From assembly GCA_037442605.1 (NCBI GenBank), contig JBBIPY010000002.1, positions 1 through 38,809 on the forward strand: DNA of 38,809 nt. Reading direction: 5' to 3'. This DNA comes from Candidatus Omnitrophota bacterium. Lineage in GTDB: Bacteria; Omnitrophota; Gorgyraeia; DTHP01. The notes below the pieces were generated by a model. That model searched no databases and was not told the origin of the DNA. It worked only from the letters and a program-made list of their open reading frames with translations. The translations under genes and the position numbers were made by a program. Shown piece by piece: positions 35,192 through 35,381 of the stretch. Within the stretch, counting starts at the first letter, position 1. Each line of letters begins with the position of its first letter.

Positions 35192-35347
35192 AATCTTCCT
35201 CCCATCCTTTTTAAATTTATACCTTTAAAAAGGGGTCTGATCCCTTTTATCTATTACATATAAGATATAACACGGATTTCGGCTTTTGACAAGGGAGGGG
35301 AAATACTTTATAAATTTGTAAATAAATGAGATAAAAAATATCTCTTG

Positions 35348-35362
35348 GCAAAATATGTGCCA
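35348..35362 (-). promoter_or_regulatory. Near-consensus sigma-54 (-24/-12) promoter facing the island
   Basis: The minus strand reads cTTGGCAC-atatt-TTGCc (TGGCAC-N5-TTGC). It lies 20 nt after the ilvC stop and ~157 nt upstream of the start at 35191. Confidence 0.65.
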
Positions 35363-35381
35363 AGAATATAGCTGTTTTATC

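Follow-up and report, generated by a model that had tools for sequence, protein, structure and literature searches.

A sigma-54 promoter match and a terminator-type hairpin formed by the same bases directly after ilvC in an Omnitrophota bacterium

Promoters of the −24/−12 class are recognized by sigma-54 (RpoN), are activated by enhancer-binding proteins of the NtrC type and share the consensus YTGGCACG-N4-TTGCW. Sigma-54 binding sites that are transcriptionally inactive or lie inside genes have been described (Bonocora et al. 2015, PMC4591121), and Levy et al. (bioRxiv 10.1101/086108) reported an insulation within sigma-54 promoters that acts on translation, through CT-rich anti-Shine-Dalgarno motifs close to the ribosome-binding site. 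Here we analyse an element in 38,809 nucleotides of a Candidatus Omnitrophota bacterium (contig JBBIPY010000002.1 of assembly GCA_037442605.1), a stretch that we call the window. The element lies between ilvC and the first gene, isl1, of an island of mostly unannotatable genes; it matches a sigma-54 promoter, and its bases also form a hairpin of the kind that ends transcription.

The minus strand carries an exact TGGCAC-N5-TTGC core directly after ilvC (TGGCACATATTTTGC, 35362..35348; with flanks cTTGGCACATATTTTGCCaag, 35364..35344). The whole −24/−12 match, TTGGCACATATTTTGC, spans 35348..35363, with the GG at 35361-35360, the GC at 35349-35348, a distance of 10 nt between them, and a predicted start site at ~35337-35335. 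The core occurs exactly once in the window, against 0.06 occurrences expected from dinucleotide shuffles (6 of 100 shuffled windows held at least one); with one mismatch allowed there are 3 matches against 1.8 expected. The match is intergenic and has the orientation of isl1 (34280..35191); it begins 18 nt past the stop codon of ilvC (35384..35382), and the distance from its −12 C down to the ATG of isl1 is 156 nt. A sequence-only reading of this DNA had placed a near-perfect sigma-54 motif here, facing the island, and to that extent it is borne out. Scored with an approximate weight matrix (frequencies after the compilation of Barrios et al. 1999), the site reaches 16.0, the second-highest score of the window and the tenth-highest in 938 kb of Omnitrophota DNA, with intragenic matches scoring alike; the top score of random window-sized sequences is 14.4±1.5. 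It departs from the consensus at −20 (A) and −11 (C). Matches of at least 16 are few in the 938 kb, and those positioned as promoters are the site after ilvC, a second site in the window (2938..2955) and the sites in the comparison sequences L087, L093 and L047, the last next to rpoN. A 10-mer flank, ATTCTTGGCA, is common to the site after ilvC and the second site and occurs nowhere else in the window (0.10 expected). An origin of the former as a duplicate of the latter was rejected, since their identity (21-22/34) amounts to no more than the motif and a short flank. When the 190-nt spacer was compared by blastn-short with the DNA gathered for comparison, the palindrome AAAAGGGGTC alone recurred, and an Rfam scan of the whole window gave no family at the gathering threshold and, in the island region, only noise at E ≤ 1.

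The same bases form an intrinsic-terminator-like hairpin (35333..35370, minus strand), found by terminator scan and folding, which the sequence-only reading had not considered. The stem pairs UUCUUGGCA (35366-35358) with UGCCAAGAG (35350-35342) around the loop CAUAUUU. In the scan, the stem has 9 pairs and the loop 7 nt, and AUAUUUUUUA comes next; in a fold of the 209-nt spacer the stem is lengthened to 12 bp by UAU (35370-35368) and AUA (35341-35339) across a 1-nt bulge, and U6 (35338-35333) follows immediately 3′ of it. The isolated 44-mer folds at −12.3 kcal/mol (z −3.75), a stability equalled by 0 of 200 shuffles. The complementarity inherent in a sigma-54 motif is 3 bp (GCA with UGC), and the other 6-9 pairs and the U-run are additional to it. 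The 7-bp inverted repeat CTTGGCA-N7-TGCCAAG that had been noted earlier is indeed present, in a single copy in the window even when 2 mismatches are allowed, but it was understated, as the pairing extends to 9 bp (12 with the bulge) and then U6. The hairpin starts 11 nt past the ilvC stop codon, behind the last gene before unrelated DNA. A looser terminator scan finds a strong canonical terminator near 17717 in the window, so the organism uses such signals. Judged by its sequence, one stretch of 45 bases is thus both a sigma-54 promoter match and a stop signal of standard form for transcription of ilvC.

The gene upstream of the element, ilvC (35382..36374, minus strand; Pfam KARI_N/KARI_C), encodes ketol-acid reductoisomerase and is the last of ilvBNC. 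In a genome scan with IlvC, which places the organism in Candidatus Omnitrophota, the protein was 64-89% identical to IlvC of Omnitrophota (best match 89%). By Pfam, the gene order runs ilvB, ilvN, ilvC, then ~10 kb of mostly unannotatable open reading frames (ORFs; 25394..35191), then leuA and aroE. The genes of the window are all on the minus strand, with the island's VapBC pair on the plus strand. ilvBNC-leuA-aroE is uninterrupted in ~50 other Omnitrophota loci, where the ilvC-leuA gap is mostly 5-250 nt; the island is thus a genuine insertion that interrupts a conserved operon. Comparison with the relatives places this ~10-kb insertion, which separates ilvC from leuA, at 25173..35381 (minus strand); it holds eight genes for leader-bearing proteins (minus) and the VapBC pair (plus). 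From the sequences compared, the island is strain-specific and inserted within the ilvBNC-leuA-aroE operon. Its first gene, isl1 (minus strand), encodes 303 amino acids with a hydrophobic N-terminus and then RRIR, has a ribosome-binding site, GGGAGG, at 35203-35198, and is without a match in Pfam, NCBIfam and PADLOC.

The window was searched for a duplicate of the ilvC 3′ end and none was found; a site-specific integration scar for the island was rejected because of this, though relatives have such duplicates. The ilvC-leuA spacers of L002, L016, L018, L026, L032, L038, L042 and L053 contain structured inserts of 100-400 nt just downstream of ilvC, each closing with a duplicate ilvC 3′ end (ATGCCNTGGATGAARAARTAA), as if small elements integrate there and restore the end of the gene. 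The motif GGGATAAATTCG recurs among these inserts, and the window carries cGAGGATAAATTCc upstream of leuA (~25275).

Comparison of sequences indicates that canonical sigma-54 promoters exist in Omnitrophota. The best example in the window is the second site, TTGGCATAGTATTTGCTG (2938..2955, minus strand), 16 nt upstream of the ATG at 2923 of a peptidoglycan (PG)-binding/OmpA operon; it has the top weight-matrix score of the window (17.5) and is validated comparatively. The sequence-only reading had found no comparable minus-strand match elsewhere; TGGCATAGTATTTGC (2954..2940) is comparable and was probably missed because it lies inside the longest ORF, 2279..3040. In an alignment of nine homologues, the internal Met (ATG at 2923), not the start of the longest ORF, is the first residue of all but one copy, which is 97% identical; the second site is therefore intergenic. 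This ORF overextends the PG-binding gene by 39 codons, the homologues starting METGKRIG.... The operon behind the second site (417..3040) encodes a PG_binding protein, a Gly-zipper lipoprotein, another PG_binding protein and an OmpA-LysM protein. In the window and L087 the predicted start precedes the ATG by only 2-5 nt, so that the mRNA would be nearly leaderless.

The window also encodes, at 11681..14435 (minus strand; Pfam), a histidine kinase with a 4HB_MCP sensor (13131..14435) and an NtrC-type sigma-54 activator with an intact GAFTGA motif (11681..13129). In L087/L088, the closest ortholog (65% protein identity), the block AAAATTCTTGGCATGGTATTTGCT is kept at 27/28 positions and the remaining spacer is unalignable. 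Immediately upstream of the PG-binding operon of L087 are a 4HB_MCP kinase and an NtrC activator, 66% and 72% identical to the window pair. In L093, TTGGCACGGATATTGCTT (score 20.1) and the same operon come within 72 nt after an NtrC ortholog that shares 56% identity. No sigma-54-like site was found in the four orthologous operons without an adjacent activator (L089, L091, L095 and L098), and the conserved promoter (window 2938..2955; L087 3946..3990; L093 1849..1940) is present only where the orthologous NtrC and kinase are present. A metagenome scan for PG-binding orthologues had given one weak match, and protein search and contig comparison were used instead. Both genes of the pair that had been put forward as a candidate regulator of the island are thus confirmed, but the PG-binding/OmpA operon is their better-supported target. 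The more solid by-product of the analysis is this comparative evidence for a sigma-54 regulon in Omnitrophota, in which a 4HB_MCP kinase and an NtrC activator go with the conserved promoter of a PG-binding/OmpA-LysM envelope operon.

rpoN is not within the 38.8-kb window. L047, another Omnitrophota genome, encodes a complete RpoN with AID, CBD and DBD domains (rpoN at 18873..20195, minus strand, ~8 kb from ilvC) and has a sigma-54-like site, TTGGCACGCTTTGTGCTC, in a divergent spacer (20293, plus strand) upstream of a secreted-protein gene. All the lineage's sigma-54 promoters have an AT-rich stretch from −10 to +1. The validated promoter of L087 is itself a palindrome, CTTGGCA-N7-TGCTAAG, with ~15 pairs (−15.6 kcal/mol, z −4.0), without a U-run and away from a gene end; a dyad around −24/−12 is therefore no argument against a sigma-54 promoter. 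At the window's second site there is only a weak dyad (centroid −4.1 kcal/mol, z −0.27). L087 also has two perfect 12-bp palindromes with 3-nt spacers, AAAAAATTTTTC-TGC-GAAAAATTTTTT (3850..3876) and AAGAATTTTTGC-TAC-GCAAAAATTCTT (3946..3972), upstream of the −24 element and abutting it, which are candidate NtrC binding sites. The window has two half-sites, AAGAATATTTGC (3105..3094) and GCAAAATTCTT (2966..2956), 125 nt apart. Two words tried as activator sites were rejected, GCAAAWWTTCTT being unenriched (3 found, 3.1 expected) and TGGNAAAATNAT having 0 occurrences.

Between the sigma-54 match and isl1 stands a candidate sigma-70-type promoter, CCTTGTCA-N14-GTGTTATATC (35264..35294, minus strand), with a predicted start site at ~35257. 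Its −35 element, TTGTCA (35292-35287), is followed by a 17-nt spacer and TG-T-TATATC, with the −10 at 35269-35264. It is built like the promoter-like sites upstream of aroK (15938-15909) and leuA, and also matches CTTGACG-N15/16-TGTTATATT upstream of genes of the island family in the metagenome-assembled genome NC818. A common pattern, AAAATCCCTTGCC-N16/18-TGTTAAWAT, seems to run through the organism's housekeeping-type promoters (15909..15938 and ~25205..25245, minus strand) and combines a CTTGCC −35 element with an extended −10. On the plus strand, the best sigma-70 consensus of the spacer is TTGACA-N17-TATAAA (35286..35314); it overlaps the minus-strand −35 back to back, and transcription from it would proceed in antisense to the hairpin and to the 3′ end of ilvC. 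By our estimate ~0.3 such matches are expected per window, and we do not count it as a finding.

Between the sigma-70-type −10 and the ribosome-binding site lies a degenerate copy of the palindrome AAAAGGGGTCAGACCCCTTTT (35226..35248, minus strand; aaaggg/cccttt, repeat family D3/I3-I8). The ~145-nt leader with an aaaggg/cccttt hairpin that was proposed earlier does have this hairpin, but the hairpin is one copy of an island palindrome family and the sigma-70-type promoter falls inside the leader. Perfect copies of AAAAGGGGTCAGACCCCTTTT are at 34253-34274, in the gap between isl1 and the next gene, isl2, and at 31867-31888, upstream of the gene at 30905..31816; related words occur after the gene at 2279..3040. 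The copy at 35226..35248 folds at −6.9 kcal/mol, compared with −12.3 for a perfect copy, and would be a 5′ stem-loop of the sigma-70-type mRNA or a weak attenuator for longer transcripts. AAAAGGGGTCAGACCCCTTTT is held within a 49-nt repeat found at 34226..34274, 31840..31888, 35200..35248 and also ~2256..2279, two of the copies being 100% identical. A second hairpin, TAGGGACACATCCCTATTTTG (~32717 and ~29664), stands between island genes; hairpins of both kinds may serve as protein-binding sites, as short terminators or as the 5′ stem-loops of mRNAs.

We tentatively read the element as a junction that works in two ways, with the terminator and the sigma-54 promoter both functional, and give this reading somewhat less than an even chance. 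Its parts fare differently: the hairpin probably acts as the terminator of ilvBNC, and a working sigma-54 promoter after ilvC has slightly better than even chances. For the promoter speak the exact core, its position and orientation and the use of sigma-54 in the lineage, and the shared flank ATTCTTGGCA favours a genuine site. Several observations weigh against it. At −11 the site has C where all four other sigma-54 promoters of the lineage have T, it is missing their TATAWT box (−7..−2), and the bases in place of the box (CAAGAGA), like the C at −11, are exactly those that the hairpin requires. No inverted repeat of at least 10 nt resembling an upstream activating sequence (UAS) was found in 35363..35700, the ~340 nt upstream where the sequence-only reading had suggested searching the ilvC 3′ end; the region is all conserved ilvC coding sequence, and the test is a weak one. 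The kinase/NtrC pair of the window has, from its genomic associations, an evident target in the PG-binding/OmpA operon, not the island. A sigma-70-type promoter of the organism's usual form lies inside the proposed leader, 70 nt downstream of the sigma-54 match, and isl1 has no need of a sigma-54 promoter because its own sigma-70-type promoter suffices. The homologues of isl2 in NC818 (P0003 and P0004; L083 and L084) have no sigma-54-like site scoring above 12.2, their promoters being of the form CTTGACG-N15/17-T(G)nTAxxxT. The gene isl1 is an ORFan, matching only itself among 5.8 billion proteins, and the only other contigs with isl1 or this organism's ilvC, L001 (Logan SRR11582151) and L082 (GCA_964555025.1), are the same organism and identical over the spacer. 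The lack of a UAS, the sigma-70-type promoter and the ORFan context together disfavour a genuine sigma-54 site. On the side of the terminator, the looser scan also yields many matches inside genes, so that a hairpin with a T-run alone is not highly specific and we give that scan little weight.

It is quite possible, if doubtful, that the element is a terminator and nothing else, the hairpin with U6 ending ilvBNC, isl1 being transcribed from the sigma-70-type promoter at 35294..35264, and the sigma-54 match being fortuitous, perhaps with holoenzyme bound but unactivated. The succession of terminator, promoter, leader hairpin and ribosome-binding site would then be a complete, ordinary gene boundary, in line with the missing UAS in the ilvC 3′ end and the sigma-70-type promoters of the island homologues. 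Palindromic hairpins also make fortuitous TGGCA...TGCCA matches likelier; in a palindrome with a 7-nt loop, specifying 7 rather than 10 bases is enough to produce the motif. The other matches of at least 16 (L033/L035, L027, L039 and L005) sit within ORFs, as does an exact-core match of lower score (13.65) in L042, and all of these look fortuitous from their positions; in E. coli, sigma-54 occupies many transcriptionally inactive sites (PMC4591121). However, a terminator stem with a 7-nt loop would be expected to spell the sigma-54 motif by chance only on the order of 1e-4 times per window (a rough estimate), the flank ATTCTTGGCA, held in common with a validated promoter, would be left unexplained, and the lineage demonstrably uses canonical sigma-54 promoters. 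By an equally rough estimate, the chance that a genuine sigma-54 promoter also carries 6-9 extra pairs and U6 is likewise small, and is raised by the precedent of L087. That precedent, a validated promoter with an even stronger dyad, no U-run and a position away from a gene end, is what recommends the converse idea, that the element is solely a sigma-54 promoter, its palindrome a promoter-associated dyad, its T-run the AT-rich melting region common to the lineage's promoters from −10 to +1, and ilvBNC reading through. We consider this unlikely: a hairpin of −12 kcal/mol with an immediate U6 should terminate at least partly, 11 nt past a stop codon is a fitting place for a terminator, and the dyad is not a conserved promoter feature, being weak at the window's own ortholog of the L087 promoter.

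The sequence-only reading had also allowed for a repressor operator, in which CTTGGCA-N7-TGCCAAG would be bound by a dimeric regulator such as the island's XRE-type helix-turn-helix (HTH) protein (25394..26782) or a repressor that also serves the PG-binding operon. The 7-bp dyad is perfect and extends further, L087 has a similar one and the island does encode an HTH protein; yet the palindrome has one copy in the window and none, at up to 2 mismatches, upstream of other island genes, and the palindrome that recurs in the island is another one, AAAAGGGGTCAGACCCCTTTT. In the pair formed by the second site and L087, the −24 and −12 parts alone are conserved and the right half-site is not, which fits sigma-54 better than a symmetric operator. 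We regard an operator as very improbable, and even an operator and all other readings taken jointly have little chance of being right.

Under the preferred reading of a junction with two functions, we infer termination, holoenzyme binding and activation at the site as follows. When polymerase arrives from ilvC, the RNA would fold into the 9-12 bp hairpin with U6, most likely ending ilvBNC transcripts ~45-50 nt past the stop codon. In double-stranded DNA the arms of the palindrome bear the −24 TGGCAC and the −12 TTGC, and sigma-54 holoenzyme would be expected to bind there, facing isl1; action of an activator ATPase would then lead to a start near 35336 and the ~145-nt leader. Occupancy by sigma-54 is likelier than firing, because the holoenzyme binds good matches even when unactivated. 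As isl1 has its own sigma-70-type promoter another 70 nt downstream, the gene would not depend on sigma-54 alone, which would add a conditional second input. It is a speculation, and an unlikely one, that the palindrome is a compact, selected dual device in a host-dependent Omnitrophota bacterium, which as RNA blocks read-through from a housekeeping operon and as DNA is a silent-until-activated gate to a strain-specific island of secreted, effector-like proteins of SidJ-like pseudokinase-plus-propeller and TPR/transglutaminase-like types; one 4HB-kinase/NtrC pair might then switch both the palindrome and the PG-binding/OmpA operon, with which the flank ATTCTTGGCA is shared.

If the sigma-54 reading is true, recently acquired ORFan secreted proteins would be tightly controlled in response to a signal and shielded from the amino-acid operon that they interrupt, which would offer a handle on the timing of secreted-protein production in an uncultured, probably host-dependent bacterium. 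If the element is only a terminator, it is a warning that hairpins with TGGCA/TGCCA arms and 7-nt loops mimic sigma-54 promoters.

The proteins of the island have a signal-peptide-like N-terminus and directly after it RR-x-[KR] (ARRVK, ARRMK, ARRAR, TRRIR). A 45-aa leader (MKN.RI.ILVLLGM...HPGGGDSGFYS.SC) recurs almost unchanged in three of them; a truncated, leader-only ORF (MNKRKIFWTILILCFSIGPDAFARG*) is found at ~25340..25263, and another start fragment of a leader gene (ATGAAAAATCTTAGAATGAAAATT) lies at ~32674. The leader with RR-x-[KR] may be a sorting signal of a new type. In isl2 (32718..34214, minus strand), amino acids 60-263 resemble the SidJ-related pseudokinase family NF033874 of NCBIfam (E 1e-18, below the curated cut-off), and 123-nt tandem repeats (32728..33100) encode propeller-like repeats at the C-terminus, one repeat fewer being present in the other assembly of the organism (456 aa compared with 498 aa). 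The plus strand of the island encodes a VapB15-like antitoxin together with a PIN toxin (31969..32605), and a 243-aa minus-strand ORF at 31888..32619 is probably spurious. Elsewhere in the window, short repeated words fill the spacers at 36483..36375, 19434..19400, 23663..23552, ~21110 and ~20590, cgcggaaccacgcggaa follows both ilvN and aroC, arrays of the heptamer (ACAGGCW)n lie downstream of leuA, and repeats of the cagtgtacagtttacagtg type flank a 570-nt spacer, apparently with a disrupted small gene.

Set beside known systems, the site after ilvC resembles sigma-54 promoters in its GG-GC spacing of 10 nt, its exact TGGCAC-N5-TTGC core and its co-oriented downstream gene, as well as in the GAFTGA activator in the window, rpoN in the phylum and a conserved sigma-54 promoter of the same kind in the same genome. 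It differs from them in that no UAS was found and that the DNA upstream is conserved coding sequence, in the C at −11, in a motif lying wholly in a hairpin with U6, and in a sigma-70-type promoter within the would-be leader. With intrinsic terminators it shares the 9-12 bp stem, the 7-nt loop, the U6 and the position 11 nt past the last stop codon of an operon, and a partial upstream A-tract gives it a bidirectional look; in contrast to them, its stem has just 4 G-C pairs and a moderate energy and spells a sigma-54 motif, and the relatives, in which leuA directly follows ilvC, are without a terminator here. Like the sites of Bonocora et al., a good match may hold holoenzyme without ever firing, although those sites are mostly intragenic, whereas the site after ilvC lies between genes, in the right place for a promoter. 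The insulated promoters of Levy et al. are likewise tightly silent sigma-54 promoters with a built-in block on expression by read-through from upstream, whereas the candidate device here is a transcription terminator formed by the −24/−12 arms; a literature search, which was not exhaustive, found no precedent for a terminator built in this way. Both −24/−12 promoters and intrinsic terminators are well-known classes, and a terminator made from a promoter's own arms would, if real, be a small variation on them.

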